Assembly: GCA_025998875.1 (NCBI GenBank)
Contig: AP024675.1
Coordinates: 1,273,549-1,337,548 of the forward strand
DNA: 64,000 nucleotides
Direction of reading: 5' to 3'
DNA from: Bacteroidota bacterium
GTDB taxonomy: Bacteria; Bacteroidota; Rhodothermia; JANXDC01
Positions 23,901 to 64,000 of this stretch are shown piece by piece. The first letter of the stretch is position 1. Each line of letters opens with the position of its first letter. Made by a program: the position numbers and the translations under genes. The notes beneath the pieces were generated by a model, which saw only the letters and a program-made list of their open reading frames with translations, ran no database searches and had not been told where the DNA came from.

Positions 23901-26900
23901 CTGGCCGGCTTCAAGGCCGATCCCCGCTCCGCCTGGGCCGGGATCATGACCCGTATTCCGGATGGATACAACAACTTCGAAATCAACAACATCGAGTTTC
24001 TCGAGTTCTGGTTTGCTCCCCAGCTGCGTCCCGGGGATCGGGGCCGACTGTATATCGACATCGGCTATATCAGCGAGGACGTCATTCCGAACGGACAGCT
24101 GAACACAGAAGACGGGCTGGATTCGACCAGTAACTCGTTTACACGCGACCCGTGGGGAAAGGTATCCCGGGGGATCAAGGATCAACTGCTTTCCAACGAC
24201 CCCCGCGTGCGTGCCTACGAGGACGTGGGGTTGGATGGGATGCGGGACGAAGAAGAACGCCTCCATTTCCGGGACTTTCTGGAGGCCGTACGCAGGCAGT
24301 TCGGGGAGAACTCCCCGGAGTATCAACGCCTCTGGAACGATCCCTCTGCGGACAATTACCGCTACTATCTGGATCCGACTCTTCCGGCCGAGGTGGGCTG
24401 GCAGGAGCGATTTCGGCGCTATTTCCCCGGTTTGGAGGGCAACACCCCGCTTGCGCAGTCCGGTATCCTGGGTTCGACAAAGTTTCCGGATACCGAGGAC
24501 CTCAACGGTAACAACGCCCTGGATACACGCAACGCGTATTTTCAGTACGAGCTGGAGCTCGATCCGGAGCAGATGCAGCCGGGCAGGGGATATGTGGTCG
24601 ACCGGCGGGAGGTCGAAATCGGAGGGGTACGGCAGACCTGGTATCTGGTGCGCATTCCTCTGGCGCAGTACCGGCGTCGGGTGGGGGACATCCGGGACTT
24701 CAAGGTGGTTGAGGCCCTCCGATTCTGGCTTACAGGCTTCAGCCAGCCGGTCACGTTGCGCTTTGCCACCCTGGAGCTGGTCGGTAGCCAGTGGACGCGT
24801 CTGAACGTGGGCACGCAGAATCCGGATACCCGCTTTGAGGTGGCCACGATCAATATCGAGGAAAACGCCACGCGCACCCCCATTCCCTACAAGAGCCCTC
24901 CCGGGGCGATCCGTCCGGTCGATCGCACGACGCTGGAGCAGATTCAGCGCAACGAGCAAGCGCTTTTGTTGCGGGTGCAAAACCTCTATCGAGGCGACGA
25001 GCGGGCGATCTTTAAAACCTTCGGAGGCTTGAACCTGTTGCGTTATTCCAACCTGCGTATGGACGTCCACGGCGAGGGATACGAGAAAGCGGAGGAAGCG
25101 GAACTGTTTGTGCGGATCGGTTCGGATTTGCTGCGCGATTACTACGAATACCGGCAACCGGTGAAACCGACCCCCCTGTTGCCGGGAGGGGCCAGCGCCT
25201 ATACGGCCGAGCTTCTATGGCCCGCCGAGAACCGGGTCAATATCCTCCTGGATCGGCTCAATCAGCTCAAGCAACTGCGAGATGAGCGGGGGATTCCCGA
25301 GGATTCTCTTTTCGGGGCTCCGGAGTTGCTCGACTACGAGGATGTGCCCCCCGGGGCGGGCCTGTATATTCGGGGTAGACCCAGCCTGAGCCAGGTTACC
25401 AAGATCGCTGTCGGAATCCGAAACCCGCGCACGGGCCGAGCCGTGCTGAATGCGGAATTCTGGATAAACGAGCTGCGCGTGACGGGCTTCGATGCCCGAT
25501 CCGGATGGGCCGCCGTGGGCAGTGCCAGCCTGCAACTGGCCGATCTGGCTCAGCTGGATTTCAGCCTGGACCGCCGCACGGCGGGATTCGGTTCTGTGGA
25601 AAGCCGGCTCGAAGAGCGCGGCAAGGAAGATCGCTTCAGCTGGTCGCTGAACACGCGCTGGAACCTGGAGCGCTTCTATCTTGCCCGTTACGGATGGCAA
25701 ATCCCTCTGTCCGTCACCTGGCAGCAGTCCCGCACTACGCCCACCTACGCTCCCGGGGCAGGGGGCGATGTGCAGTTGGTCACCATTCGCCGATTGATCG
25801 AGCGGGATACGACGTTGGATCCGGCCCTCCGGCGTATGCGGGTCGATTCCCTCTATCAGGCGGCCCGTACCCAGCGGCAGACACGTTCCATCGCCCTTCC
25901 GAGCATTCGAAAATCGGGTTCTACACACCCGCTGGGTCGGTACCTGCTCGATCCGCTGGGGGTGCAGTTTTCCTATGTCGAGGAGGAGGCCTCCAGTCCC
26001 ACGCTGATCTTCGATCGCCGCTGGCAGTGGTCTACGACGGCGCAGTATCAGCTCACCTTGCCTCGCCTGGCCGTTGTGCGCCCATTCCGTTTTCTGGAGG
26101 GGGTTCCGGTACTGGACCTGCTGGCCGATCTTCGTCTGAATTACCTGCCCAGCTCCCTCTCCTTGCAGGCCGGGCTATCGCGACAGCTCATCCGCACGCA
26201 GGACCGGCCCACGACGGGGGATCTGCGCCAGCAACCCGGTCTGCCCCTGGAGGCCATCAAGCCGGTTCGGGAAACGCATCAGCTGCAGTATCGGGAGGGG
26301 ATGGGCCTGCAGTATAACCCCTTCCCGTTTCTCGGGCTCGGGTACACGTACAATGGACAGACGAGCCTGGCCGCGCTGGGGGTGGATACGATCTATGTGA
26401 CCCTGCAGGATACGGTGCGACTGCGCCGGTTGCGGGTGCTCTCGGAACGCGCCGTCTGGGATCGCCTGTGGGGGCGCTATCCGGGGGTCCGACCGGAGAC
26501 GTACACGCAGAGCTTTTCGGCCACCTTCACTCCCCGGTTCAGCGCCTACCCCGCCTTGCGCTGGCTTGTGCTCTCTGGCGCTTATACGGGAGACTTTTTG
26601 TGGAACAACGGTCCGGCGGGGGACAGTACGGGCGCCCAGATAGGCAACCAGGCCGACTGGCGGATAAACGGGCAGCTGCGTATCGGGGAGCTGTGGAGTT
26701 CGGCTCGCTGGTATCAGGAGCTGCAGGCCTGGTCGCGCGGCGGTAGCCGGGCTTCTGAGCCCCTCTGGAAACAGCTCTGGAGGCGGGTGCTTTTCGCCCT
26801 TACGAGCCTACGCCAGATAGACCTCTCCTTCACCCAGCGGCAACAGGCCCGAAATGCGGGCTTTGCCGGTCCGGCCGGGTTGCGCGCGCTTTTTGCCGAT

Positions 26901-28121
26901 GATCCCAGTCGTCGCTCTCCCTCCCTGGCCTACCGGCTGGGCTGGGAACGCACGCTCGATCCACAGCAGCGCGTGCGCGTAGGCGGGGTGCGGTTTCTGG
27001 ACAGCTGGCAGCAGACCCGGCAGATAGGGGCGCGCACGAGCCTTTCCCTGTTGCCCGAGTTACGGCTGGATCTGAACTGGGATGGGCAGTGGCAGGGCAA
27101 TCTGCAGAGTACGGTTACCTTTGATCCAATGCAGAGGCGCTTTCAGGAGGCTACCACCCGAGAAGGGCAGACGACGCTTACGACTTGGGGGCTGCGGGGC
27201 TCCTACGGTCGGTTTTTCCGGGCTCAATGGGCTCGACTGCAGGCCGACGGTATACAGGGCGGCGAGGTGCGGGACCGCGACGGAGACGGTTTCGTGGTGG
27301 GTTCGAACGCCTCGCTGCTGTGGGATTTTCAACGCACCTTTGGCGGTCCGTTCTCCGGCGTGCGGGATCGCTATGGTATGCTTGTTCTGCCGCTTCCGAA
27401 CTGGCAGGTCGTCTGGACGGGGCTGGAGCGCCTCTGGATTCTGCGCCGGCTGGTCAGCTCGATCGTCCTGCGCCACGGATATGTGGGGCAGTACCAGGCC
27501 TCCTGGAGGGCTAATCTCAACGCGGGGGCACCCTTCACCTACCGCATCGGGGGGATTCGAGTCTACGACACAATCCCCGCCTACGAGGGGCGCGATCTGA
27601 GCATAGCGCAGCGTTTTGCGCCCTTGATCGGTCTCAGCCTGACCTGGAAGGGGGACGTGCGTACGGAGCTCACCTATAATCAGGCGCGCATCGTCTCGCT
27701 CAGCTTTTCGAACGCGAACGTGAACATACGCCGCGTGGCCGAGCTCAGCTTTCGAACCAGCTACCGGCGTTCCCGCTTCCGGCTTCCTTTTTCCCTCTTC
27801 GGCATACGCTCGCTGGATAACGATGTGACGATAGGGCTGGCCATTTCGTTCAGCCAGGAGGTGCGCGATGTCTATTACCTGAGCCAGGACCTCGATGAGG
27901 CGCTTTCGGGTGCTCTGCGCATCGAAGATCTGCGGCCGCGTACCAGTGACGGTTCCGCCCGCTGGGTCATAGAACCCACCTTCGGATACACCTTTTCCAG
28001 CCGGGTCACAGCCGAGTTTCGCTGGCGCATCGAGGACGTGGCCCCGCGCGGCTCCTCGCGCGTGACGCCCTCGACCACGCAGCAGATCGGCTTTAAAATT
28101 CGGGTTGGCATCACATCCTGA
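20958..28121 (+). CDS. sprA: Giant outer-membrane protein, SprA/Sov-like type IX secretion translocon (2387 aa)
   Basis: Single uninterrupted 7.2-kb ORF; N-terminal signal; beta-rich composition with frequent aromatic residues; size and taxon context match SprA. Start may be internal Met at ~21012. Confidence 0.6.
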   Translation: MVGQQDGRAFSGRPLGFFMIALTLWGLASGSVPRGTDRFFPAQHTLSPPAVGADSAAADTGRSALPYRLRSYWVSPLFPRRVEPLVALPLPGSVWRHEVRPDSTYSRMTARETVSGLTVRIPLTVDYLSYRQERLRYDLARTWRELLRLRQQEQAASRGLLDLRIEVPGGRSSAFSTLFGAPTVSLRVNGQADIDLGLSIQNNRDPNLPPQQQKRIDPLFGQNIRLGISGGIGDKLTVSTDWDTQRMLDFENRLKLQYIGYEDEIIKRIEAGNVSLQTPSQLISGGQALFGIRSDLQLGPVRLSTVFSQQDGERARIVLDGGVEENVFELKATDYEDDTHFFLGFYFRNRWGIGPGQAFSRPPTILAEVQITDVEVWVLRQSQQRLQENERDAVALLELGEAGESRPPDPALDRFSDAVLERLRLSNQVTDILERELGVSPRAYVQGTFLRLEPGRDYTFDPNLGYISLRTSLSNFQAVAVAYRYVDASGRLVEVGDFARGGGSSGSQINRLVLKLIRPTNPVPGDPSWDLVLRNIYRLPGSNFRAGELQLDVVYRKPGLPESRTLPGLDIRQRDGRPVSLLQLTGLDRLNDNQAPQPDDRFDFLPGYTINEREGRLLFPVLEPFGSTLRQAIYQAAAERADLKELENTLVFDALYRETRVEARRDPRDVYFIKGRSRGSARQQYSLGAGLGGVVEGSIRVLSGGVLVPPSAYTVDYITGTITFTDPTYLQPGRQIIVEFEQQKAFRLQQKTLLGLRADYDAAENLKLGATFLQLGEQPIADKNRIGEEPVRNLIWGLDGNYTVESRWLTRLLDVLPLVQTKAPSKLQVRGEVAQLVPGFVSTALVRQTQERLRREGYPVPPDERRGVSYIDDFEGVRSAVSLLSPGIWRLASVPDSIGRVRGSTAFDDSLKTTWRAWLSWYAIPIQLYGQDKAPLGPETWPIQQRQLFPERQVQRGQDYLQTFDLWYLPGERGPYNYNRDLAGFKADPRSAWAGIMTRIPDGYNNFEINNIEFLEFWFAPQLRPGDRGRLYIDIGYISEDVIPNGQLNTEDGLDSTSNSFTRDPWGKVSRGIKDQLLSNDPRVRAYEDVGLDGMRDEEERLHFRDFLEAVRRQFGENSPEYQRLWNDPSADNYRYYLDPTLPAEVGWQERFRRYFPGLEGNTPLAQSGILGSTKFPDTEDLNGNNALDTRNAYFQYELELDPEQMQPGRGYVVDRREVEIGGVRQTWYLVRIPLAQYRRRVGDIRDFKVVEALRFWLTGFSQPVTLRFATLELVGSQWTRLNVGTQNPDTRFEVATINIEENATRTPIPYKSPPGAIRPVDRTTLEQIQRNEQALLLRVQNLYRGDERAIFKTFGGLNLLRYSNLRMDVHGEGYEKAEEAELFVRIGSDLLRDYYEYRQPVKPTPLLPGGASAYTAELLWPAENRVNILLDRLNQLKQLRDERGIPEDSLFGAPELLDYEDVPPGAGLYIRGRPSLSQVTKIAVGIRNPRTGRAVLNAEFWINELRVTGFDARSGWAAVGSASLQLADLAQLDFSLDRRTAGFGSVESRLEERGKEDRFSWSLNTRWNLERFYLARYGWQIPLSVTWQQSRTTPTYAPGAGGDVQLVTIRRLIERDTTLDPALRRMRVDSLYQAARTQRQTRSIALPSIRKSGSTHPLGRYLLDPLGVQFSYVEEEASSPTLIFDRRWQWSTTAQYQLTLPRLAVVRPFRFLEGVPVLDLLADLRLNYLPSSLSLQAGLSRQLIRTQDRPTTGDLRQQPGLPLEAIKPVRETHQLQYREGMGLQYNPFPFLGLGYTYNGQTSLAALGVDTIYVTLQDTVRLRRLRVLSERAVWDRLWGRYPGVRPETYTQSFSATFTPRFSAYPALRWLVLSGAYTGDFLWNNGPAGDSTGAQIGNQADWRINGQLRIGELWSSARWYQELQAWSRGGSRASEPLWKQLWRRVLFALTSLRQIDLSFTQRQQARNAGFAGPAGLRALFADDPSRRSPSLAYRLGWERTLDPQQRVRVGGVRFLDSWQQTRQIGARTSLSLLPELRLDLNWDGQWQGNLQSTVTFDPMQRRFQEATTREGQTTLTTWGLRGSYGRFFRAQWARLQADGIQGGEVRDRDGDGFVVGSNASLLWDFQRTFGGPFSGVRDRYGMLVLPLPNWQVVWTGLERLWILRRLVSSIVLRHGYVGQYQASWRANLNAGAPFTYRIGGIRVYDTIPAYEGRDLSIAQRFAPLIGLSLTWKGDVRTELTYNQARIVSLSFSNANVNIRRVAELSFRTSYRRSRFRLPFSLFGIRSLDNDVTIGLAISFSQEVRDVYYLSQDLDEALSGALRIEDLRPRTSDGSARWVIEPTFGYTFSSRVTAEFRWRIEDVAPRGSSRVTPSTTQQIGFKIRVGITS

Positions 28122-43378: not shown

Positions 43379-44755
43379 ATGGCCGGGATCAACAACCTCT
43401 TCGAGCTCAGCAAACGCGCGCTGCTGGCCTACCAGGGTGCGATGAACACGGTGGGCCACAACGTGGCCAACGCGCAAACCCCGGGCTACTCGCGCCAGCG
43501 TGTGGATCTGCGCCAGAGCGGGGTACAGGAGGGGCGCTGGTATCTGGGTCTGGGTGTGCGTCTGGAGGGCGTCGAACGGTTGCGGGATCGGTTTCTGGAG
43601 ACCCAGATCCTGGAGCAGACGGCGCGCTGGGGGCGCTTTTCGCGGGAGCGCGCGCTACTGGAGCGCCTGGAAGGGCTGTTCTTGCCACGCACCGAGGGGG
43701 GGCTGGAGGCGGCTTTCGAGCGCTTCTGGAACGCCTGGAACGACCTGGCCGCTCAGCCCGACAGCCTGGCCGTTCGAGGCGAGGTGCGCGAGGCCGCGCG
43801 CGCCCTGGTCCACCTCTTCCACAGCCAGGATCGCTATCTGCAAACGCTCGGGGAGCAGGCGCTCCAAGAAGCCCGACAGAAGGTCGATCGCGTCAATGAG
43901 CTCCTCGGGCAGATCGCCCGGATAAACCAGCAGGAGCATACCAACCGCCTGCAGGGAGTGGTGGATAACACCTTGCTCGATGAGCGGGATCGGCTGGTGC
44001 GGGAGCTGGCCGGATTGGTGGAGCTCACCGCCCAGACCGACCCCCGAACGGGTATGCTCGTGCTCTTCAGCGGGGGGCTCGCCCTCGTTCAGGGAGAAAA
44101 GGCCGAGACCCTGGAATTCGATGCCGACCCCGCAAGGGCGACCTTCTCGCTTCGGCTACGGAATGCGCAGGTGGCCTTCCGTCCCGCCCACGGGGAGCTG
44201 GGGGGGCTTAGGGAATTCCTGCAGGATACCCTTCCCGAACTGCGGGCCCGGTTGGATACCCTGGCCGGAGAGCTTGTTGCGGCGGTAAACACCCTGCATA
44301 TGGGCGGGTTTACTCTGGATGGACAGACCGGGATCGCCTTCTTTGACCCCTCCGGCACCACTGCGGCCACCATCGAGCTGGACTCAGCCGTACAGGGGGA
44401 TGTTAGCCGCATCGCGGCCGCTGACAGGCCCGATGAGCCGGGCAATAACGCCGTAGCGCGTGCCATAGCCGGTCTGCGGCTACAGCGGTGGCTTGACTCT
44501 GGGCTGGCCACACCGGGGGAGTTTCTCTCCTCCCTTTATGGTCTGGTCGGCTCCCGAAGCCAGCAGGCCCGCGCCCGGGCGGATGCGCAGCAGGCCATTC
44601 TGGATCATCTGCAGACACTGGGTGAGGCTATCTCCGGAGTGTCGCTCGATGAGGAAATGACCCACCTGATCCGCTTCCAGCAGGCCTATGGAGCCGCAGC
44701 GCGGGTGTTGCAAACGGTACAAGAGATGGTAGAGACGCTGTTGAGCCTGAAGTAG
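43379..44755 (+). CDS. flgK: Flagellar hook-associated protein 1 (FlgK)
   Basis: N-terminal rod/hook family motif; C-terminal conserved helix; 458 aa. Confidence 0.8.
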   Translation: MAGINNLFELSKRALLAYQGAMNTVGHNVANAQTPGYSRQRVDLRQSGVQEGRWYLGLGVRLEGVERLRDRFLETQILEQTARWGRFSRERALLERLEGLFLPRTEGGLEAAFERFWNAWNDLAAQPDSLAVRGEVREAARALVHLFHSQDRYLQTLGEQALQEARQKVDRVNELLGQIARINQQEHTNRLQGVVDNTLLDERDRLVRELAGLVELTAQTDPRTGMLVLFSGGLALVQGEKAETLEFDADPARATFSLRLRNAQVAFRPAHGELGGLREFLQDTLPELRARLDTLAGELVAAVNTLHMGGFTLDGQTGIAFFDPSGTTAATIELDSAVQGDVSRIAAADRPDEPGNNAVARAIAGLRLQRWLDSGLATPGEFLSSLYGLVGSRSQQARARADAQQAILDHLQTLGEAISGVSLDEEMTHLIRFQQAYGAAARVLQTVQEMVETLLSLK

Positions 44756-44765
44756 GAGCTCTCCC

Positions 44766-45656
44766 ATGCGCATCACCCAGGGCATATGGCATCGAGAGGC
44801 GCTTCGGCATCTGGAGCGTCTTCAGGAAGCGCTTCATGAGGTGCAGACCCGCATTGGAACAGGATACCGCATCAACCGGCCCTCCGATGATCCGGCCGCG
44901 CTCGTTATGGCCCGGCGACTGGCCCAGGAGCGCGCGTTGCGGGAAGGATACCTGCGACACATCGATTTTGCCCGCGGCTTTACCGAGGCCACCGCCGGAG
45001 CGCTGGATCGTATGCTCAACCAGCTGGCCGAGTTGAGCGAGCTGGCCACGCGCGGGGCCAGCGATGGGCTCGGCCCCGAAGAGCGCCGCTCCCTGGCCGC
45101 CCAAGCGCGCGCGCTCCTGCAGGAGCTGGTTTCCGAGCTCAACGGCCAGCACGCCGGCTGGTATCTGTTCTCCGGAACCCGGATTCATACGCAACCCTTC
45201 CTCGATGGAGGGGGAACGTATCTCTACCAGGGCAACGGAGAGGAATTGCTCCGGGATGTGGGCCCGGGAGTGACCGTTCCCCTGGGCCTTCCGGGAAACC
45301 GCATTCACGATCTGGGAGGTGGACAGACCCTGACGGGCGTAGCTCTGGGCCTTGTCGCCGCGCTCCAGTCCGGAGATCGGGCCGCCATTCAGGGGAGCAT
45401 AGGGGAGTTGGCGCGGGCCCAGGAGCATGTGCGCGCCCTGGCGGTGGAGATGGGCGCCCGGCTGAGGTGGCTCGATAGTCTGCAGGAGCGCCACCTGAGC
45501 GACATCGAACAGCTGGAGGCGCTGCGCTCCCGCCTGGAGGATACCGATTACGCGCGCGCTGCCTCGGAGCTCGAGCGGGTGCAGACCGTTTATACGGCCA
45601 CGGCGAAAGTGATCAGCTGGCGTTTGCCCCAGAGTCTGGTCGATTACCTGCGATAA
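44766..45656 (+). CDS. flgL: Flagellar hook-associated protein 3 (FlgL)
   Basis: Flagellin-like N-terminus (RPSDDPAA) and flagellin-like C-terminal helix; follows flgK. Confidence 0.75.
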   Translation: MRITQGIWHREALRHLERLQEALHEVQTRIGTGYRINRPSDDPAALVMARRLAQERALREGYLRHIDFARGFTEATAGALDRMLNQLAELSELATRGASDGLGPEERRSLAAQARALLQELVSELNGQHAGWYLFSGTRIHTQPFLDGGGTYLYQGNGEELLRDVGPGVTVPLGLPGNRIHDLGGGQTLTGVALGLVAALQSGDRAAIQGSIGELARAQEHVRALAVEMGARLRWLDSLQERHLSDIEQLEALRSRLEDTDYARAASELERVQTVYTATAKVISWRLPQSLVDYLR

Positions 45657-45666
45657 GGAGTTTGCT

Positions 45667-46278
45667 ATGACGCGTCCGGAAGAGTTACACACAGCCATCG
45701 CGCTGCTGGAGGCTGAGCACTACCAGGAGGCGCTTCCGCTCTGGAAAGCGGCTCTGGAACGCGATCCGCATGATCCGGTCGCCCTGTGGGGGTGCGGGAT
45801 CTGTCTGGAGCAGCTGGGCCAACTCCAGGAAGCGGTCCGCGTCTACGAGGCCCTGCTCGGGTCTGAAGCGCTGGAGGCCCGGTTTCGGGTCGCTATCCTC
45901 AACAACCTGGGCCTGTGCTACTTCCGTCTGGGCCGCTATGAAGAGGCCCGCTCCTGTTTCGCCTCCGCTCTGCCGGAGGATCCGTCGGCCTGTTCGGGTC
46001 GCCATCTGGCCATGACGCTGATCGAACTGGGAGCCTATACCGAAGGGGTGGATCAACTGGTGCGCACGCTGCGCCACCATCCCCAGGATGTGCCGGCCCT
46101 GCTGCTGCTGGCCGGATATCTGGAGGAGGTGGGGGCTTTCGACCGGGCGGCTACCTACTACGAGTGGGCCCGGGACGTGATCAGGGCAAACAGTCCTGAG
46201 CATCCGGATCTGCGGTTTATCGAGGCGCGCATCGAAGGCCTGGCCATCCACAGGCAGAGCACAGGGGAGCGGACATGA
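45667..46278 (+). CDS. TPR-repeat protein
   Basis: Repeated Ala/Leu/Tyr-rich 34-residue helical pattern. Confidence 0.6.
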   Translation: MTRPEELHTAIALLEAEHYQEALPLWKAALERDPHDPVALWGCGICLEQLGQLQEAVRVYEALLGSEALEARFRVAILNNLGLCYFRLGRYEEARSCFASALPEDPSACSGRHLAMTLIELGAYTEGVDQLVRTLRHHPQDVPALLLLAGYLEEVGAFDRAATYYEWARDVIRANSPEHPDLRFIEARIEGLAIHRQSTGERT

Positions 46279-55776: not shown

Positions 55777-56124
55777 CTACCCTTCCCACTCTAGCCATCC
55801 CCCATCGGATGATCGAGGCCGATAGCGGTCCTGGGCCTCCGCGTAACGGTGAAGCTCCGCCAAAGCGGCCTCACAGGCGGCCAGCTGTTCTCGTAAGCGG
55901 CTTTCGAGCTCCCGCTCCTTCTGGGCGATCCGTTCTAGGCAATCGCGCATCTCTTGGTCTTCGCTTTGGCCGGTCTGCGGCTCCCGAAGGAGTTCCTGCA
56001 ATTCCCGTTCCCTTTCTTCGAGCAGTTCGAGCGCGCCCGTGGTATCATGAGTGTGCAAGGCGTTCAGGATCTGCTCCGTAAGGTGCTCGATGCGCCGCAG
56101 GCGCGCCGTTGCTCTCATGGTCAT
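55777..56124 (-). CDS. Hypothetical coiled-coil protein (possible FliT-like chaperone)
   Basis: 115 aa, Glu/Leu/Arg-rich heptad pattern; location downstream of flaG/fliD/fliS; overlaps flaG 3' end by ~80 nt so start is uncertain. Confidence 0.3.
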   Translation of the reverse strand: MTMRATARLRRIEHLTEQILNALHTHDTTGALELLEERERELQELLREPQTGQSEDQEMRDCLERIAQKERELESRLREQLAACEAALAELHRYAEAQDRYRPRSSDGGWLEWEG

Positions 56125-56533
56125 CCCCCTGGAGGCTGCTCAGCAGGTTCTGCAGGCTCTGGACCAGCTCCAGAAACTCCGTGGGCGGAATCTCCCGGAT
56201 CACCTCTCCCGTGTCCGGATCGATCAGGCGCGTGATGATACGGCCTGTTTCCGGATGCACCTGAAAGGTAATCGCGATCCGATTGGCCCGCAAGACCATA
56301 TCCCGCTGCCGGAGCCATTCCTGCAGATGCCGGATCTGTAGGCCCAGCTCGGAAAGCTCAACGGCTTCCTGAAGCCCGGCGTTGTTCTGCCGCTCCGGGG
56401 TATTCGAGAGCTCGGATTCGGAAAAGTGCGTCGATCGATCCGAAGCCGTCGCCTCTGAGGGGGCGACCGGACGTACGGGGGGAAGGGGGGCCGGCAGGGG
56501 TTGTATGCGTTCTATGGGTGCGAGGTTGGCCAT
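56045..56533 (-). CDS. flaG: Flagellar protein FlaG
   Basis: ITFQVHPETGRIITRLIDPDTGEVIREIPPTEFLEL matches FlaG core. Confidence 0.7.
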   Translation of the reverse strand: MANLAPIERIQPLPAPLPPVRPVAPSEATASDRSTHFSESELSNTPERQNNAGLQEAVELSELGLQIRHLQEWLRQRDMVLRANRIAITFQVHPETGRIITRLIDPDTGEVIREIPPTEFLELVQSLQNLLSSLQGDDHESNGAPAAHRAPYGADPERLAHS

Positions 56534-56549: not shown

Positions 56550-58028
56550 TTATCGGTGGATCGTCAGTTGCGCCATGTAGGCCTGCAAGGCGCTCATCTG
56601 GGATTCGGCTTTGGAGAGCGCATCCCGCAGTTGAGCAAACTGCCGGCGCAGTTGCTCTTCGCGCACCTTCATGCGCGCCTCGAAGTCCGATATCTGTTTG
56701 TTCGTGCGCCCAAGCTGAGCGTCTATGCTCTCCTGCATGCGCTGCAGGGTGCCATCCTGCCGCCGGTAGCTATCGACCAGCGCGTTGAGCCGGGTGGCCA
56801 GCCCATCTGGGCCGGCAAAGAAGGCCCGCACAGCCTCCGGATCCTCCTCCAGCGCCTGTGCCAGCCGGGCCGGATGGGAGATCGTCAGCCGTCCTTCCCG
56901 GTCGGCGGTGATGCCCAGCGCGGCGAGCGTGCTGTAGGTGCCGGAGACGCGCTCCAGCGCGCTTCGCCGCAGACTGCCGAGCAGGCCCAGCACAAGGCCA
57001 TCGCCCGCCAGCGGGCCACGGGTCCGGGAGGCGGAGTTTATGCTCGTGTGGGTGCGCAGCGTGGAGAGCGCCTCGTTGTAGGCGCGCAAAAAGTCCTCTA
57101 TCGATCGGCGCGCCGCGGCCCCATCGCGGGAAACGGTTACGGTGACCTCCTGGGTCGTGGGGGCCAGGAGGGTAAGGGTGAGCCCTTCGATGGCATCGGA
57201 AACGGTGTTCCCGTCCCGGTAAAACGGCAGGCCGTTTATCGTGAAGGCCGCATTCAAGGACGAGGAGGCCGCATCTGTTCCCGGATCGGCCAGGTATCCT
57301 CCGGAGGATCCGGATGCCAGCCCGTTTCGGGAAAGCTCCAAGGCGCCGAGCAGGCCACCTGCGGAATCGATAAAGCCAAGCCGATATGTATACCCCGTCT
57401 GGGAACTGCTCAGGAGCAGACGGACCGTTCCCCTGTGCTCCTGCACCACGGAGACAGTGGGCTTCTCGGAGCGCAACAACAGGCCATCGGATACGGCCTG
57501 ATCGAGAGCACCTGCAATGGCCGCGGCGATCTCCTGCAGGATGGTGGCGTTATCCGATCCGGTGGGATTGAGCGTGACGGCGATTTGCAGACGCCCTTCG
57601 GGGTCGGATTCGGTGGGATGGGCCACTTCGAGCCAGAAGGTCTGGGGACCGTTTGCGTCGAAGAAGGCGCGCAGCTCAGATCCGCTCCGACTGTACTGCT
57701 GCGAGACGCGTGTGTCGGCCCGTGCCAGGCGCTGGACCGAAACGGTATACGTGGCCGGTGAGGCCAGTTGCGAAGCGCTGACCCGCAGGAGCTCAGGGTG
57801 AGAGGAGCTGGCGGTTTTGGCCACGAAGGCCCCACCTTGAGGATCGAGGAGGTTGTTCAGCTGGGTCTGCAGCGCACTCAAGCGGCTTTGCAGCTCAGCG
57901 AGCGCGGAGCGGCGCGTCTCCAGACGTTTGCGCTGCTCGAGGAGTCGGTTTTTGGGCGTGCTTTCGTACTGGATGATCTTCTCGATCAACTGCTCATAGG
58001 GATCGTTGAGCAACTGGTTGATCAGCAT
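56550..58028 (-). CDS. fliD: Flagellar filament cap protein FliD
   Basis: N-terminal and C-terminal coiled-coil FliD regions; start placed at ATG 58026-58028, 2 nt after fliS stop (track ORF begins at GTG 58058). Confidence 0.8.
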   Translation of the reverse strand: MLINQLLNDPYEQLIEKIIQYESTPKNRLLEQRKRLETRRSALAELQSRLSALQTQLNNLLDPQGGAFVAKTASSSHPELLRVSASQLASPATYTVSVQRLARADTRVSQQYSRSGSELRAFFDANGPQTFWLEVAHPTESDPEGRLQIAVTLNPTGSDNATILQEIAAAIAGALDQAVSDGLLLRSEKPTVSVVQEHRGTVRLLLSSSQTGYTYRLGFIDSAGGLLGALELSRNGLASGSSGGYLADPGTDAASSSLNAAFTINGLPFYRDGNTVSDAIEGLTLTLLAPTTQEVTVTVSRDGAAARRSIEDFLRAYNEALSTLRTHTSINSASRTRGPLAGDGLVLGLLGSLRRSALERVSGTYSTLAALGITADREGRLTISHPARLAQALEEDPEAVRAFFAGPDGLATRLNALVDSYRRQDGTLQRMQESIDAQLGRTNKQISDFEARMKVREEQLRRQFAQLRDALSKAESQMSALQAYMAQLTIHR

Positions 58029-58030
58029 GG

Positions 58031-58339
58031 CTATCGCTTGAGCACGTGGTTTTTCCACTGCTGGCGTAGTTCGGCCAGCACTTCACGTACGGCCTCGAAA
58101 TGGCCATTGTGCGTCTGATGCAGACAGTACATGTAGAGCTCGAAGAACGTACGGGCCACCTCCTCGTAGTCGAAATTCAGGCTGTTGATCAGCTCCCGGA
58201 GTACGAGGCGCAGCCGGTCACGGTCGCGGCGCGCACAGGCCTGTAGCCCGAGGTCATAGAGGGTAAGGACTAATTCTTCCGGGGAGGCAGACAGAATTTC
58301 CTGCTGTTTGTACTGTCGGGCGTACTGCTGGGCGAGCAT
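58031..58339 (-). CDS. fliS: Flagellar export chaperone FliS
   Basis: 102-aa helical bundle protein with FliS-like core (LTLYDLGLQACARRD...FELYMYC). Confidence 0.75.
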   Translation of the reverse strand: MLAQQYARQYKQQEILSASPEELVLTLYDLGLQACARRDRDRLRLVLRELINSLNFDYEEVARTFFELYMYCLHQTHNGHFEAVREVLAELRQQWKNHVLKR

Positions 58340-58430: not shown

Positions 58431-59309
58431 TTAGCGGAACAGGGAGAGCACGGCCTGGGGATTGGCGTTGGCCTGCGCCAGGGCAACGGTGGCCGTCTGC
58501 TGCAGGATCTGCAACTTGGCCACGCGCAGCTGCTCCTTGGCAAAATCGGCATCAAAGACCCGGCTGCGAGCCCCCTCCGTGTTCGTGATCTGCGCGGAGA
58601 GCATGTTTTCCTTGACCGTGAGCCGCGTCTGGAAGGCGCCCAGGTCCCGGATGGCCGCGCTTACCGTGGAAATTGCCTGGTCAATAGAGGCCAGCGCCGC
58701 CGAGAAGCTGGCCGCCGACGACGATCCGGTGAGCGCACCCGATCCGGTGACCACCCCGCTGAGCAGACCCACGGACTGGAAGGTCGTGGTGCTGCCGCTG
58801 GAGGTGATGGAGAAGGTCACGGTGTCGGAGTTGTCCGGACCCACGTGGAACTGGAGGGTGCTCGAGGAAGAGTTGTAGTCCTTCAGCAGGGCGCGTCCGT
58901 TGTACTTGGTCTGCTCGACGATCTGGTCGATCTCCCGACCCAGGGCCTGGATGTCGGCCACGATGGCGGTGCGCTCCTCTTGCGCCATGGAATCATTGGC
59001 CCCGCGGGTGACCTTCTCCTTGATCGTCTGCAGGATGTCCATGATCGACTGCAGACCGCCCTCGGCCACCGAGAGCATGTTCTTGGCGTCCCCGATGTTG
59101 TCCAGGGCCGCGCTCAGCCCCCGAATGCGGGCCTCGAGCTTCTTGCCCAGGGCATAGCCGGCCGAATCGTCCTCGGCCGAGTTGATCCGATAGCCCGTGG
59201 CCAGACGCGTCTGCCGCACGCCCAGCTCCCGGTTGATGCGAAAGAGCGAATTGAGCGCGCCCAGGGACTGAGCATCGGAATTGATGCGCGTCAGATCTCC
59301 GAACGGCAT
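58431..59309 (-). CDS. fliC: Flagellin
   Basis: Conserved flagellin N-terminal (LRINSAEDDSAGYA) and C-terminal (QILQQTATVALAQANANPQAVLSLFR) helices; short Ser/Thr-rich central region. Confidence 0.9.
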   Translation of the reverse strand: MPFGDLTRINSDAQSLGALNSLFRINRELGVRQTRLATGYRINSAEDDSAGYALGKKLEARIRGLSAALDNIGDAKNMLSVAEGGLQSIMDILQTIKEKVTRGANDSMAQEERTAIVADIQALGREIDQIVEQTKYNGRALLKDYNSSSSTLQFHVGPDNSDTVTFSITSSGSTTTFQSVGLLSGVVTGSGALTGSSSAASFSAALASIDQAISTVSAAIRDLGAFQTRLTVKENMLSAQITNTEGARSRVFDADFAKEQLRVAKLQILQQTATVALAQANANPQAVLSLFR

Positions 59310-59379
59310 GGCAGTACTCCTTTTTACTTGGGGTTTGGGGTGGTTGGCCAGGTTCTCTGGCTTTTCTTCTCCGAGGGTA

Positions 59380-59407
59380 GTTATCGGTACGATGAGAAAA
59401 AACTTAA
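59380..59407 (-). promoter_or_regulatory. Candidate sigma-28 (FliA) class III promoter for fliC
   Basis: Minus strand reads TTTAAG-N14-ACCGATAA versus consensus TAAA-N15-GCCGATAA; -10 element ~70 nt upstream of fliC start. Confidence 0.5.
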
Positions 59408-59575
59408 ATTGTCCCTGGGGGGGTATGTCTGTACCGAACCAGATGGCGGGCCTGCAGGGCCGATATTCTGATCAGTCCAATGGGGAGCGGGAAGACGGCC
59501 AGGCAGGACAGGGGATGGGATTGACGACCGCCGTTCTGGTCCCGACAGAGCCGGGGTAATTTTTTCCGCATCTCG

Positions 59576-62362
59576 ATGGGGAATGAATTTGGCCTGCTCG
59601 GCTGTGTATGTCGAGGAAAGGAAGGCGTTATGTCGGCTGATCGGCGGCTGTACCGGCGTTATCCTGCCCGGGGACCCTGGCCAGAGGTGAACGTGTCCGT
59701 GATCGTAGTGAACTACAACCGAGCCTCTTGCCTGCAGGATTGCTTCGATAGCCTGTTTCATCAAACATATCGAAATTTTGAAATCATTCTTGTAGATGAC
59801 GGAAGTTCGGATAATTCCAGAGATATTTTATTGAATATTTTTGAAAAAAATAGGAAAGACAAAAAAATTCCTTTTAGAATGATAATTCAACAAAATAGTG
59901 GACATCCTTCTTATCCCATAAATAGAGCTATGAGGCTTGCGAGAGGAAAGTATATACTTTTTCTTTCGTCAGACGACATGATACATCATAAGTGTATAGA
60001 AATATTTGTAAAAATTTTAGATGAAATGCAAGAATATGGATATGTTTATTGTGATAGAGTGGATTTCAAAGATAAAAACATTTTAAAAATAGTAAAATCA
60101 AATTATTTTGATGCTGATAAGTTAATTTTTGAAAATTTTGTTTCTTATTGTTCTATGTTTAGAAAAGAAATATTTAAAAAAGTTAAAAAAATTAAAAAAG
60201 TTGGCTTTGAAGATTGGAATTTATGGATTGAATTTCTAAAGTTTGGTTATCATGGATTTTATGTTCCTGAGCCTCTGTTTCTGTATCGAATAAACGAAGA
60301 TGGATTGTTTTCGAAAAATATAGAAGAAAAAGAAAAGAATATTGCCCAGCTGATCCGGGAAAATACAGTGTTATACCACCCGGAGGTGCTCAACTGGGCG
60401 TTCAAGGTGCTGGGCGAAAGGCAGGAACCTCCGCTCTTCAGCATTATCGTGCCTACCCGCAACAGGCCGGAGTGGCTTCGGGAGGCCCTTCGGAGCATTC
60501 AGCAGCAGACCGTGGCCAATTTTGAGGTGCTCGTCGTCAACGATGGGGGGCAGGATGTCTCCCACGTGGTCGCATCCCTCCAGGACAGTCGATTTCGATA
60601 CATCGCGCTTCCGGAGCGGCGGGGACTGGCTGCCGCCCGCAACCGGGGCCTTGAGGAGGCGCGCGGCCGGTATGTGGCTTTCCTGGATGATGATGATCGC
60701 TTCCTGCCCCATCATCTGCAAACGGCCTGGATCGCCCTCTCCGAGGGGGCGCGCGTGGTCTACACGGACGCGCTGCGCGCCGTCTGGGCACCCCTGCCCC
60801 GGGGAGGGGAAGCGATTGTCGATCTCTGTCTGCCGTATCGGCTTGACTTCCATCCCGATCGGCTTCTACTGGGCAACATCGCGCCCGTAAACTGCTTCGT
60901 GCTGGAGCGCGAACTCATTGAGCGATACGGCCCCTTTGATGAGTCCTTGCCCGTGCTGGAGGACTGGGAGTTCTGGTTGCGCCTGTCGCGGCGGGTGCGC
61001 TTTCGGCGCATCCCTGAGCCCACGGTGTGGGTCAACTGGCGGCCCCACGGCCAGAACCTGACCCACAGCCGGGAGCAGGATTTCGCCCGGGCCCGTGCCC
61101 GCATTCAGGCCCGATACCGTCGGGCCCTTGTCCGGCTTGCGCCCGAGAGACGGCAGGAGATCCTCCACGAGTTCCTTCGCATCTGGTCTCGGGATGGTGT
61201 GCTTCCTGAACCGCCCCTGCTCTCCATTGTGATCCTGGCACACAACCAATTTCCTCATACCCGAGCCTGTCTGCAGTCCGTGCTCACCCATACTCCGCCC
61301 TGGTCGTTCGAATGCATCGTCGTCGACAACGGCTCCACGGACGAAACGCCCCGCCTGCTTCCCCGGTGGGCAGAGGAGCATCCACAGATTCGATACATCC
61401 GCCTGGAGGAGAACCGGGGGTTTCCGGCCGGCAATAACGTGGGGCTGGCCGCCGCCCAGGGACGCTATGTGATCCTGCTCAACAACGATACCGTCGTTAC
61501 CCCCGGATGGATCGAGCGCCTGCTGCTGCCCGCCGTAACCGATCCCTCTGTGGGGCTCGTGGGGCCCGTTTCCAATCGCGTCTCCGGCAGGCAACAGCTC
61601 CCGGCCGTCGCCTACGACACCGAGACCCTCAAGGGGTTGGAGGCTTTCGCCTTGAAACGGGCGCGCTGGTATGCGGGCCGAAAGCTTGAAGTCCGACGTC
61701 TGGTGGGCTTTTGTCTGCTCATCCGACGCGAGTTGCTCGAGCGCATCGGTGGGCTGGATGAGCGCTTCGGTATGGGCAACTTCGAGGACGACGATTACTG
61801 CCTGCGCGCCGCTCTGGCCGGTTTCCGGGCCGTCGTGGCGCTGGATTGTTTCGTGCATCATACCGGAAGCCAGACTTTCCGCGCCCTATCCATAGATTAC
61901 GGCCGATTGCTGCTGGAGAACTGGGAGAAGTTCAAACATAAATGGCATCTGCCCGCCGATCTTCCCTATGGGCATCCGTATCCGTTTCCCGAGCGGCCCT
62001 TCGATCCGTCCCGGGATTACATCCCGCTACCCCGATGGGAGCGGCCGCTGGAGGACTTCGTGGCCGGTGTGCAACAAGCCCTTCTGCAGGGCGACGCGCT
62101 CCGAGCCGAGCATCTGGCCTACGAGGTCACTCGAGTCCATCCCCGAAACCCCTACGCCTGGTTGTTGCGCGCCTTGGTGGCCCGGCTGGACCGTAGATGG
62201 GATGAGGCTCTTGAGGCCGTGCGATATTCCCTTCGGCTCCAGGAGACCCCGGAAGCGCTCCAGGAACTGCGCCGTCTGCTCGAGGGCACTGGCGTGGGCA
62301 AGCAAGTGCCGCCGTATAGGGAAGAGCCCTGCCCTGAGCAGGCGGCCCTCAAGCACCTCTGA
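59576..62362 (+). CDS. Multidomain glycosyltransferase: three tandem GT2 domains plus C-terminal TPR-like region (928 aa)
   Basis: Three GT2 cores: (1) VSVIVVNYNR...ILVDDGSSDNS...SSDD; (2) FSIIVPTRNR...VVNDGGQD...DDDD; (3) LSIVILAHNQ...VVDNGSTDET...NND; start may be ATG 59630. Confidence 0.8.
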   Translation: MGNEFGLLGCVCRGKEGVMSADRRLYRRYPARGPWPEVNVSVIVVNYNRASCLQDCFDSLFHQTYRNFEIILVDDGSSDNSRDILLNIFEKNRKDKKIPFRMIIQQNSGHPSYPINRAMRLARGKYILFLSSDDMIHHKCIEIFVKILDEMQEYGYVYCDRVDFKDKNILKIVKSNYFDADKLIFENFVSYCSMFRKEIFKKVKKIKKVGFEDWNLWIEFLKFGYHGFYVPEPLFLYRINEDGLFSKNIEEKEKNIAQLIRENTVLYHPEVLNWAFKVLGERQEPPLFSIIVPTRNRPEWLREALRSIQQQTVANFEVLVVNDGGQDVSHVVASLQDSRFRYIALPERRGLAAARNRGLEEARGRYVAFLDDDDRFLPHHLQTAWIALSEGARVVYTDALRAVWAPLPRGGEAIVDLCLPYRLDFHPDRLLLGNIAPVNCFVLERELIERYGPFDESLPVLEDWEFWLRLSRRVRFRRIPEPTVWVNWRPHGQNLTHSREQDFARARARIQARYRRALVRLAPERRQEILHEFLRIWSRDGVLPEPPLLSIVILAHNQFPHTRACLQSVLTHTPPWSFECIVVDNGSTDETPRLLPRWAEEHPQIRYIRLEENRGFPAGNNVGLAAAQGRYVILLNNDTVVTPGWIERLLLPAVTDPSVGLVGPVSNRVSGRQQLPAVAYDTETLKGLEAFALKRARWYAGRKLEVRRLVGFCLLIRRELLERIGGLDERFGMGNFEDDDYCLRAALAGFRAVVALDCFVHHTGSQTFRALSIDYGRLLLENWEKFKHKWHLPADLPYGHPYPFPERPFDPSRDYIPLPRWERPLEDFVAGVQQALLQGDALRAEHLAYEVTRVHPRNPYAWLLRALVARLDRRWDEALEAVRYSLRLQETPEALQELRRLLEGTGVGKQVPPYREEPCPEQAALKHL
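59760..60350. other. AT-rich compositional island (roughly 30% GC by eye) inside the glycosyltransferase ORF, in frame
   Basis: Visibly Lys/Asn/Ile/Phe-rich AT-rich codons across ~590 bp flanked on both sides by high-GC coding sequence of the same reading frame. Confidence 0.85.
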
Positions 62363-63263: not shown

Positions 63264-64000
63264 TTACGTGGTGGCCGCTTCCTCGTCGTTGAAGATGTCC
63301 CCTTCGGCCGCCTCGTTGCGCAGGCGGGGTTGTTCAAGCAACTCGATACGATGCCATGCCGACAGATACCAGGTGCGCGTGGGTCGGAGCTGAACGGGTA
63401 ACCAGGACCAGGAGCGCATCTGTTCAATATAGTTCCAGTTCGCATAGGCGCTGAATTCGTCCCGCAGCTCGGTCAGCACCGCCCCGTGTTCGAGCAGAAA
63501 GCGCTGGACCTGAGCCCACTTGGGCAGGCTCGATTCCGCATGCGTCAGGCCGAAGTATCCCGCACCCCCGGGCCCATGGAGGGCCAGCAGACCCCGGCTG
63601 AGCGTCAGGGTCAGGCCGCGAAAGCTTTCCGTTGGATCCGTGAAGAAGGTGTCGAATTTCCCGATCCAGGCCTCCGGAAGGGGGGTGCGCAGATCGTAGC
63701 GTACCGCTTCCAGGTTATCAAGCCCCTCGGCGCGGGCGGCCTCCTGGAGAAAGCGCACCAGGCGCTCGTCGACGTCCACAACCAGTACGTATCGGGGGGC
63801 CCCGCTCAGAGCGGCAGCCAGGCTCATGAGATCGTCATCGCCCAGGACAAAAATCCGCCGGCCCTGCAAATCGCCCCGGGACCAGGCCAGGGCAATGCGC
63901 GCCCAGGTGGTTTCTTCTGTGACAAATCCCTGATCGAAAGCCTGTATGGCTTCCGGGCGCCGGCGGGCCAGACGGCTGAAGCGTTCCCGAATATCCTCCG
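63264..64000 (-). CDS. BpsA-like branched-chain polyamine synthase (DUF43 family), C-terminal part; gene start lies beyond window end
   Basis: RIFVLGDDDLMSLAAA motif; reading frame stays open upstream of track start (TTG 63869) to window edge with protein-like sequence. Confidence 0.55.
   Translation of the reverse strand, partial: EDIRERFSRLARRRPEAIQAFDQGFVTEETTWARIALAWSRGDLQGRRIFVLGDDDLMSLAAALSGAPRYVLVVDVDERLVRFLQEAARAEGLDNLEAVRYDLRTPLPEAWIGKFDTFFTDPTESFRGLTLTLSRGLLALHGPGGAGYFGLTHAESSLPKWAQVQRFLLEHGAVLTELRDEFSAYANWNYIEQMRSWSWLPVQLRPTRTWYLSAWHRIELLEQPRLRNEAAEGDIFNDEEAATT

Follow-up and report, generated by a model that had tools for sequence, protein, structure and literature searches.

A putative flagellin O-glycosylation system with a triple-GT2 glycosyltransferase in a flagellated Bacteroidota bacterium

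Flagellin glycosylation has been studied mainly in pathogens and a few Firmicutes. Among the described systems, GmaR attaches O-linked N-acetylglucosamine (O-GlcNAc) to the flagellin of Listeria, and its tetratricopeptide repeat (TPR) domain is thought to recognize flagellin (PMC9638930). For Clostridioides difficile type B flagellin, the enzyme named GT1 primes with GlcNAc, a multifunctional enzyme named GT2 adds two rhamnoses and methylates, and a GT3 has also been described (PMC5207246). In published surveys, a family 2 glycosyltransferase (GT2) domain combined with TPR repeats is the signature of candidate flagellin glycosyltransferases (PMC13317340, PMC5109656, PMC4875605), and both such enzymes and hypervariable islands beside fliC are established (PMC9638930, PMC13317340, PMC5109656, PMC4875605). 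Here we analyze a 64,000-nucleotide stretch from a Bacteroidota bacterium (GenBank assembly GCA_025998875.1, contig AP024675.1, positions 1,273,549 to 1,337,548; referred to below as the window), in which the flagellin gene fliC is divergent from a gene for a glycosyltransferase with three GT2 domains (triple GT2). This pair very probably belongs to a system for the O-glycosylation of flagellin, a reading based on genomic context, with the glycan itself predicted. We propose, with a probability of roughly 0.6, a two-enzyme model in which a GmaR-like primer and the triple GT2 as extender would glycosylate a minimal flagellin.

Flagellin and two glycosyltransferases at flagellar loci

The genes and domains on which the proposal rests are located in the window as follows.

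58431 to 59309, minus strand: flagellin gene fliC, 292 aa; Pfam Flagellin_N (E 7e-33) and Flagellin_C (E 1e-20), with no Pfam domain between them
59630 to 62362, plus strand: triple-GT2 glycosyltransferase gene (P0001), 910 aa from a start at Met19; three Pfam Glycos_transf_2 stretches
59687 to 60400, plus strand: GT2 domain 1 (aa 38 to 275 of the 928-aa form); PDB sequence matches to GalT1, TarP, heparosan synthase, and SpsA
60431 to 61165, plus strand: GT2 domain 2 (aa 286 to 530), of native composition, with a GC content at third codon positions (GC3) of 0.78; best PDB sequence match 9jma (E 8e-30)
61208 to 61975, plus strand: GT2 domain 3 (aa 545 to 800), conserved core; matches to chondroitin synthase domain 2 and to the MftF and rhamnosyltransferase subfamilies
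62048 to 62290, plus strand: helical-repeat (TPR-like) tail with five helices of 13 to 14 residues in the AlphaFold2 model (residues 807 to 887 in 910-aa numbering; block predicted local distance difference test [pLDDT] score, 79 to 92)
43379 to 45656, plus strand: hook-filament junction proteins FlgK (43379 to 44755) and FlgL (44766 to 45656); Pfam FlgK_D1 and Flagellin_N; head of the operon
45667 to 46278, plus strand: TPR-only protein, 203 aa; Pfam TPR families; kept in L085 and L086
46275 to 47648, plus strand: GmaR-like protein, 457 aa, with an N-terminal GT2 domain and C-terminal TPRs (Pfam GT2 and TPR); last gene of the flgK-flgL-TPR-GT run

The flagellin is composed of conserved N- and C-terminal helical regions and a Ser/Thr-rich central loop of ~70 aa (aa 141 to 210), where Ser and Thr make up 39% of the residues versus 11% to 15% in the terminal helical parts. 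The initial annotation of this stretch had described a short, 292-aa flagellin with the Ser/Thr runs NSSSSTLQ, TSSGSTTTFQ, and TGSSSAASFSA, divergent from a 928-aa protein with three GT2 domains and a TPR-like tail. The flagellin was found at the same coordinates with all three runs, and the divergent open reading frame (ORF; 59576 to 62362, plus strand) contains three stretches of Glycos_transf_2 (PF00535; E 1e-88, 296 bits). However, the length of 928 aa, counted from the first ATG, is probably an overestimate, and 910 aa is more likely: the public gene calls mostly begin at Met19 (59630), and a purine-rich Shine-Dalgarno-like sequence, GGAAAGGAAGG, lies directly 5' of 59630, with none at 59576. 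The tail scored 19 bits with Pfam TPR_16 and was thus below the cut-off of 32.7, but its helices are present in the AlphaFold2 model, where they appear consecutive, as for ~2.5 helical-hairpin repeats. In domain-wise BLAST of the fetched proteins and loci, homology to the tail was limited to that of the closest relative (protein P0002; see below).

All three GT2 domains scored above the Pfam GT2 cut-off, retained their acidic donor- and metal-binding motifs, and showed the GT-A beta/alpha pattern in the AlphaFold2 model of the protein (mean pLDDT, 82). In the ten-sequence family alignment A1, the acidic catalytic motifs D115 D116, D353 to D356, and N618 N619 D620 were invariant or nearly so. 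The best fold matches of the whole model were the tandem GT-A polymerases K4CP (E 3e-27) and PmHS2 (E 1e-19), with TM-scores of 0.3 to 0.45 and identities of 12% to 18%. Among PDB sequences, none of the three domains matched GmaR or SunS; the matches were sugar-acceptor enzymes, namely, a PglI-type glucosyltransferase, TarP, GalT1, K4CP, and PmHS2. The domain 2 match 9jma appears as PglI-type in the sequence table (GalNAc5-diNAcBac-PP-Und beta-1,3-glucosyltransferase) and as AvpGT in the fold-search table. No equivalog-level NCBIfam assignment was obtained for any of the domains. These properties fit an extender of an existing sugar that would add one residue per domain. Sequential addition is suggested because the domains resemble sugar-acceptor GT2s and tandem GT-A polymerases; nothing was found to support the processive building of an oligosaccharide that had originally been considered.

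Neither the triple GT2 (maximum 19-residue Kyte-Doolittle hydropathy, 1.62) nor the GmaR-like enzyme (1.03) has a segment of the membrane-span type. Both are predicted to be soluble, which fits cytoplasmic action before type III export, flagellin being exported through the flagellar type III channel. A single copy of the general periplasmic O-glycosylation motif of Bacteroidota, D(S/T)(A/I/L/V/M/T), occurs in the flagellin (DTV) and was dismissed because flagellin leaves through this channel.

The linkage between the triple GT2 and flagellin was assessed at 80 loci returned by a genome-collection scan, the flanks of which were searched with the window flagellin up to a limit of 10 kb. Half of the best matches (7 of 14; five Nitrospira, one Ignavibacteria, and one Myxococcales) had a flagellin within this distance, and none of the 66 loci with more distant GT2s did (mostly cyanobacteria, Flavobacteriia, and Patescibacteria). 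Metagenome contexts showed the linkage in two of three cases: in L087 the glycosyltransferase gene is directly 5' of a gene for a 272-aa flagellin, the two being part of a fliW-csrA ... flaG-fliD-fliS cluster in which NeuB-type sugar genes are also found, and in L088 it is 7 kb 5' of flagellin-fliS-fliD. In the third case, a Brocadiaceae homolog, the flanks contained no flagellin. All of the flagellins linked to triple-GT2 homologs are short (244 to 292 aa) and have Ser/Thr-rich loops. The linkage therefore recurs in independent lineages, is enriched far beyond chance, and is confined to the closest homologs, with L005, L006, and L089 as exceptions. A consistent separation of homologs from fliC, which the initial annotation had named as speaking against its proposal, is true only of the generic distant GT2s and not of the close family.

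The three-domain module also occurs inside giant multienzyme proteins of 2168 to 3735 aa (L010, 5891 to 12397; L089, 1826 to 9997; and other scan matches). This large family, found in Nitrospira, Brocadiaceae, and others, combines the module with GT1, GT9, methyltransferase, radical-SAM, and TPR domains.

The second glycosyltransferase is encoded 11 kb from the pair. Among PDB sequences, it most closely matches the GmaR glycosyltransferase domain from Listeria (22ao_A; E 4e-24, aa 1 to 196), with the DxD motif kept (MDADE aligned with IDADE of GmaR), followed by the peptide S-glycosyltransferase SunS. The TPRs (Pfam TPR_19, TPR_2, and TPR_8; aa 200 to 450) match those of the O-GlcNAc transferase OGT. 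Since the PDB match covers the glycosyltransferase domain only and the protein has 457 aa versus 637 aa, we classify it from its sequence as GmaR-like and not as a GmaR ortholog. It is likely the flagellin-recognizing, initiating glycosyltransferase of the system. The TPR-only and GmaR-like genes share 4 nt, at the stop of the former and the start of the latter, and the TPR-only protein may be an adaptor. Consequently, the initial proposal of flagellin and adjacent glycosyltransferase as the module holds for the pair but not for the module as a whole, to which the two genes 11 kb away probably also belong.

Both glycosyltransferases are thus genetically linked to flagellar genes, and the two arrangements are kept in the closest relative, where the ortholog of the 457-aa protein (65% identity) has the matching operon position. 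In Ignavibacteria, a GT2-plus-TPR protein encoded between the triple GT2 and flagellin is 33% identical to the 457-aa protein (E 5e-46). The triad of triple GT2, GmaR-like GT2 plus TPR, and short flagellin is found within 10 kb in three loci (L012, L087, and L088). In addition, in other metagenomic organisms, fusion proteins of 1344 to 1348 aa combine a GT1-like domain, a methyltransferase, a GT2 similar to domain 3, a GmaR-like GT2, and TPRs (L091, 2261 to 6295; L094, 6426 to 10472). Such Rosetta-stone fusions suggest a shared pathway for the two enzyme types.

The closest relative, a sister species represented by the metagenome-assembled genome (MAG) GCA_033580315.1 (L004), is syntenic with the window from cheB to HemN, and its triple GT2 (P0002) is 54% identical. 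Between fliC and the glycosyltransferase gene, it carries genes for a formyltransferase, a DegT-family aminotransferase, and FdtA (L004, 7340 to 9741), predicted to be the enzyme set for a dTDP-3-amino/formamido-3,6-dideoxyhexose. A sugar-nucleotide cassette between flagellin and a glycosyltransferase is the classical mark of a flagellin glycosylation island, and its presence here supports a functional link between the triple GT2 and flagellin.

Mosaic composition and the intergenic region

The glycosyltransferase gene is a composition mosaic, both in the window and in the sister species. In the window, the deviating part is the following.

59757 to 60345, plus strand: in-frame AT-rich segment (aa 62 to 255) covering most of domain 1; GC content 24% to 29%, GC3 0.18

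The GC content of the window is ~63%, and GC3 is 0.74 to 0.78 in the remainder of the gene. The residues F, Y, M, I, N, and K account for 46% of the AT-rich segment versus 15% to 18% of domains 2 and 3 and 10% of the tail. On the left, the composition changes within approximately ten codons, immediately past the conserved first strand-helix of the GT2 fold, whereas the transition on the right is spread more gradually over ~20 codons. The segment is in frame at both junctions and aligns residue by residue with domain 1 of other family members. It was recovered repeatedly, from JGI 3300020567, Ga0197143, Logan SRR27730026 and SRR27730023, an ENA contig, and the NCBI KatS3mg041 MAG, with scattered single-nucleotide differences between samples and with private amino acid variants within the segment (K139R, S190Y, and K202N).

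In the sister species, the corresponding block of 4 kb with ~30% GC includes most of the formyltransferase gene, inside which its left edge is located, the aminotransferase and FdtA genes, and domains 1 and 2 of the glycosyltransferase, followed by a domain 3 and tail of native composition (~63% GC). Between the two glycosyltransferases, domain 1 is 45%, domain 2 is 54%, domain 3 is 72%, and the tail is 49% identical. By comparison, the identities of the conserved genes for chemotaxis, regulation, and the flanks are 74% to 92%, and the flagellin, the Ser/Thr loop of which is mostly kept, is 88% identical. The simplest reading of these data is that domain 3 was inherited vertically, whereas each lineage acquired its domains 1 and 2 separately, by replacement from low-GC donors with the same gene family. 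Domain 3 and the helical tail would thus form the vertically inherited core, and domains 1 and 2 would be exchangeable specificity modules. For the window species, this would mean that an unsampled low-GC donor contributed a homologous, in-frame segment in place of most of domain 1; for the sister species, a single AT-rich block would have brought in domains 1 and 2 along with the three sugar genes.

Several searches were made for the donor. When aa 62 to 255 were compared with 5.8 billion proteins in a word-indexed search, the matches were generic GT2s with up to 50% identity (up to 33% over the full length), and the query protein itself was not recovered. With HMMER, 1.84 billion representatives were scanned exhaustively, and no match exceeded ~40% identity. 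In domain-wise BLAST of the fetched proteins and loci, the top match was domain 1 of the sister species (47%), and blastn against plasmids and phages gave no match; none of the collections yielded a donor closer than 47%. Low-GC carriers of the glycosyltransferase family (34% to 39% GC) are found in Ignavibacteria, a "Bacteroidetes" MAG, Vulcanimicrobiota, and L087. A metagenome scan for other alleles in the lineage, made with domain 3 and the tail, gave only the same species (L090) and distant domain 3 homologs. No direct or inverted repeats of note flank the AT-rich segment, and no Rfam family was detected anywhere in the window.

Two public gene calls (P0122, which is BCX01162.1, and P0124) begin at Met194 inside the AT-rich segment, giving a protein of 735 aa (window positions 60155 to 62362), and the segment contains runs of seven to eight A residues (59843 to 59869 and 60178 to 60200). 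A frameshift in an A run, a contig edge, or a gene-calling choice are possible origins of this shorter variant.

The intergenic region between fliC and the glycosyltransferase gene is 266 bp long when counted to the ATG at 59576 and 320 bp when counted to Met19, and it contains three elements.

59381 to 59407, minus strand: sigma-28-type fliC promoter, TTAAGTTT-N11-ACCGATAA, read from the sequence, ~72 nt 5' of the ATG
59417 to 59423, in the divergent intergenic region: poly-G tract, 9 to 10 bp 5' of the fliC -35 element
59539 to 59567, plus strand: small hairpin followed by AATTTTTTCC, a terminator-like scan match 5' of the glycosyltransferase gene

The consensus of promoters recognized by FliA (sigma-28) is TAAAGTTT-N11-GCCGATAA. 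The relative has TAAAGTCTT-N11-GTCGATAA at an equal distance from its fliC ATG; the predicted fliC promoter is of the sigma-28 type and kept in position and sequence. On the side of the glycosyltransferase gene, the search for a sigma-28 promoter gave only GCCGATAT, a -10-like octamer at 59459 to 59466 that lacks a matching -35 element. The core of the hairpin, CGGGGTAATTTTTTCC, is kept in the relative (15/16 identity to L004, 9831 to 9846), where the surrounding DNA is unalignable; the hairpin and T run may act as a leader structure or represent a -7-like promoter element.

The length of the poly-G tract differs among five assemblies, being G7 in the window and L090, G8 in L001, and G10 in L002 and L003, and it is the sole indel across ~4.7 kb of 99.9% identical DNA. 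This variation could represent a contingency (phase-variation) locus or sequencing noise. The 5' end of fliC, or the fliC-glycosyltransferase island, is also a recurrent break point of independent metagenome assemblies (L001, L002, L003, L090, starting at points equivalent to window positions 59183 to 59294, and L086), a pattern that points to heterogeneity among strains or to a further copy of the flagellin gene there.

Proposed pathway and alternatives

In the proposed model, the GmaR-like enzyme would recognize unfolded flagellin through its TPR region, possibly helped by the cotranslated TPR-only protein, and would put the first sugar on Ser/Thr residues of the central loop of the flagellin. 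The soluble triple GT2 would then extend this sugar by one residue per GT-A domain, up to a tetrasaccharide. The model builds on observed gene content, domain homologies, synteny, co-occurrence, fusion proteins, and the composition mosaic; the substrate, the order of action, the addition of one sugar per domain, and a change of the glycan by the domain swap are inferred from them. Regardless of the details of this model, we consider it quite likely that flagellin is acted on by the triple GT2. Of the flagellin glycosylation reading put forward initially, the link between glycosyltransferase and flagellin has been strengthened by the recurrent neighborhood and by the sugar cassette of the relative, whereas a self-contained pair, processivity, and novelty have not.

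Several observations weigh against the model. Ser/Thr-rich central loops are common among short flagellins and so do not discriminate on their own, and no nucleotide-sugar genes adjoin the glycosyltransferase gene in the window. No flagellar promoter was found for that gene by a pattern scan, which was uninformative. The nearest NCBIfam families are exopolysaccharide, teichuronic acid, and colanic acid glycosyltransferases, all below the family cut-offs. The homologs of Brocadiaceae, Vulcanimicrobiota, and Verrucomicrobiota have no flagellin in the fetched flanks, and the Nitrospira loci combine the module and flagellin with no GmaR-like gene within 10 kb. Two GmaR-like homologs with 36% identity, from Neomarinimicrobiota and Paenibacillus, are located outside flagellar loci; because such nonflagellar homologs exist, membership in the GmaR-like family alone leaves the substrate unfixed, and it is the genomic context that points to flagellin.

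In one alternative, the triple GT2 would be self-sufficient, its own tail binding flagellin, one domain (most plausibly domain 3) priming Ser/Thr residues, and the others extending, with the GmaR-like enzyme separate or redundant. The absence of a GmaR-like gene from the Nitrospira flanks and the direct attachment of a helical-repeat tail would suit this arrangement, as would the conservation of domain 3 and the tail alongside a conserved flagellin and the weak match of domain 3 to polypeptide N-acetylgalactosamine (GalNAc)-transferases (E ~1e-4). However, the tail comprises just ~2.5 repeats, is restricted to this lineage, and shows 49% conservation, while the GmaR-like gene is part of a flagellar operon and recurs beside triple-GT2 genes, and the fusion proteins join both enzyme types; we consider self-sufficiency unlikely. 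An improbable alternative in our view is that the triple GT2 makes a nonflagellar glycan (an exopolysaccharide, a lipopolysaccharide-related glycan, or one on another protein), in which case its adjacency to fliC would be meaningless and the GmaR-like enzyme would add a single sugar, if any. The likeness of the domains to exopolysaccharide, teichuronic acid, and colanic acid glycosyltransferases and to glycosaminoglycan polymerases is in line with this, and so are the location of the Brocadiaceae homolog away from flagellin and the thousands of giant multi-GT2 proteins, many of them in nonflagellated cyanobacteria and Flavobacteriia. The linkage to flagellin, far beyond chance and limited to the closest homologs, is difficult to reconcile with it, as are the sugar cassette between fliC and the glycosyltransferase gene in the relative and the solubility of the enzyme. 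Furthermore, no flippase, polymerase, ABC exporter, or phosphoglycosyl/lipid-carrier priming transferase is encoded among the adjoining genes, which are not those of a Wzx/Wzy- or ABC-type locus: on its other side, the glycosyltransferase gene is followed by genes for an MscS-type channel and a branched-chain polyamine synthase and, in longer contigs, by an aminotransferase gene and HemN.

With respect to the AT-rich stretch, its GC drop of 40 points is extreme and the data come from metagenomes, both of which could indicate an assembly or binning chimera. We nevertheless regard such an artifact as scarcely credible, as the two junctions are in frame inside a continuous GT2 fold with residue-for-residue alignment to domain 1, the segment recurs in several different samples and sources with private variants, and the sister species has an analogous, larger block. 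More speculatively, and with clear doubt, the gene could be a recombination scaffold, in which catalytic domains, sometimes together with the genes for their donor sugars, are swapped in frame from distant low-GC bacteria, so that the flagellar glycan is reprogrammed module by module while the flagellin-facing core (domain 3, the tail, and the GmaR-like primer) stays fixed. On/off or rheostat control may also be exerted through the poly-G tract next to the fliC promoter, if it is hypermutable. If true, this would be a cross-phylum, domain-level, O-antigen-like diversification of flagella in hot-spring mats, perhaps driven by phages or grazers.

Genomic setting and comparison with known systems

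The pair adjoins a flagellar and chemotaxis region. Directly 3' of fliC on the minus strand, the order is fliS, fliD, flaG, and a weakly fliT-like gene.

58031 to 58339, minus strand: flagellin chaperone FliS (Pfam FliS)
56550 to 58058, minus strand: filament cap protein FliD (Pfam FliD_N and FliD_C)
56045 to 56533, minus strand: FlaG (Pfam FlaG)

Further left are genes for a sigma-54 response regulator, a CheZ-like protein, CheY, CheB, CheA, CheR, and an HDOD protein, and left of these chemotaxis genes is the flgG-flgA-flgH-flgI-...-flgK-flgL run. The window also encodes the type IX secretion translocon SprA (2387 aa; 20958 to 28121) alongside the full flagellar and chemotaxis cluster, indicating that the organism has both type IX secretion and flagella, as in Rhodothermia-type bacteria of the Fibrobacteres-Chlorobi-Bacteroidetes (FCB) group. 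The branched-chain polyamine synthase gene (BpsA_C, E 8e-73; 63264 to 63869, extending beyond the listed ORF start) encodes a typical thermophile marker, which fits the hot-spring sources of the identical contigs. Identical or related proteins, for instance from the MAG KatS3mg041, carry the NCBI label "Bacteroidota bacterium." The host is a flagellated, uncultured, and probably thermophilic member of the FCB group.

In the literature searched, we found no report of flagellin glycosylation in flagellated FCB-group thermophiles, Nitrospira, or Ignavibacteria. If the model is correct, a compact, soluble, thermostable primer and a three-domain extender would build a defined oligosaccharide on a minimal flagellin, which would be attractive for glycoengineering. 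The gene would likewise be a natural experiment in glycosyltransferase domain swapping, with junctions visible at nucleotide resolution and donor and recipient ~40 GC points apart, and the combination of triple GT2, GmaR-like GT2 plus TPR, and short flagellin would provide a metagenome annotation rule for flagellin glycosylation loci. The finding opens no long-standing question.

Compared with GmaR of L. monocytogenes, the 457-aa protein has the same order of an N-terminal GT-A domain (the 22ao match with its DxD motif) and TPRs, and the target flagellin is similarly minimal, 292 aa here and ~287 aa for Listeria FlaA. However, it lacks the ~200-aa C-terminal linker and anti-repressor (MogR-binding) domains of GmaR, and no MogR-type regulatory role is therefore expected. 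It also differs in that its gene is inside the flgK-flgL operon of a Gram-negative FCB-group organism and in that some members of the GmaR-like family are nonflagellar. With C. difficile type B, the locus shares the proposed organization of a priming glycosyltransferase and a multifunctional elongating one encoded next to fliC, and the aminotransferase of the relative's cassette has a counterpart of the dTDP-3-amino-3,6-dideoxyhexose type in the C. difficile locus (PMC5207246). Here, however, three GT2 catalytic domains and a helical-repeat tail are present in one polypeptide, and the gene for the candidate primer belongs to a different flagellar operon, at a distance of 11 kb.

Like the Escherichia coli K4 chondroitin polymerase K4CP and the Pasteurella heparosan synthase PmHS2, the triple GT2 carries several GT-A domains in one soluble chain, presumably with a different donor for each, but it has three domains instead of two, nothing points to polymerization, and the proposed acceptor is a protein-linked sugar. 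We therefore do not count it among these bifunctional polymerases, the two domains of which alternate in building a disaccharide repeat. The Maf and FlmG nonulosonic acid glycosyltransferases are likewise found in flagellar loci and combine a TPR or adaptor module for flagellin recognition with a catalytic module (PMC7591256; bioRxiv 10.1101/2023.12.03.569772). However, no Maf (MAF_flag10) or FlmG GT-B domain was detected by Pfam in the proteins scanned, and no NeuB, PseC, or CMP-synthetase gene was seen among the window ORFs scanned; L087 does pair nonulosonic acid genes with a triple GT2.

The initial annotation, which knew of no described system of this architecture in this lineage, overstated the novelty, as GT2-plus-TPR flagellin glycosyltransferases and multifunctional elongating ones are established from GmaR (PMC9638930), C. 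difficile type B (PMC5207246), and the flagellar glycosylation islands of Clostridium (PMC13317340). With such islands in Geobacillus, Enterobacteriaceae, and Clostridium, the locus has in common variable glycosyltransferase and sugar biosynthesis genes beside fliC. It differs in that the variability is inside one ORF, where whole catalytic domains are swapped with a GC contrast of 35 to 40 points. The literature searched contained no description of such whole-domain swaps with a GC contrast inside one glycosyltransferase ORF or of a three-GT2 fusion beside short flagellins. Two features appear to be new with respect to the known systems: the recurrent pairing of a three-GT2 fusion with short flagellins, seen in FCB-group bacteria, Nitrospira, and others, and the domain-level, cross-composition mosaic inside a single ORF.

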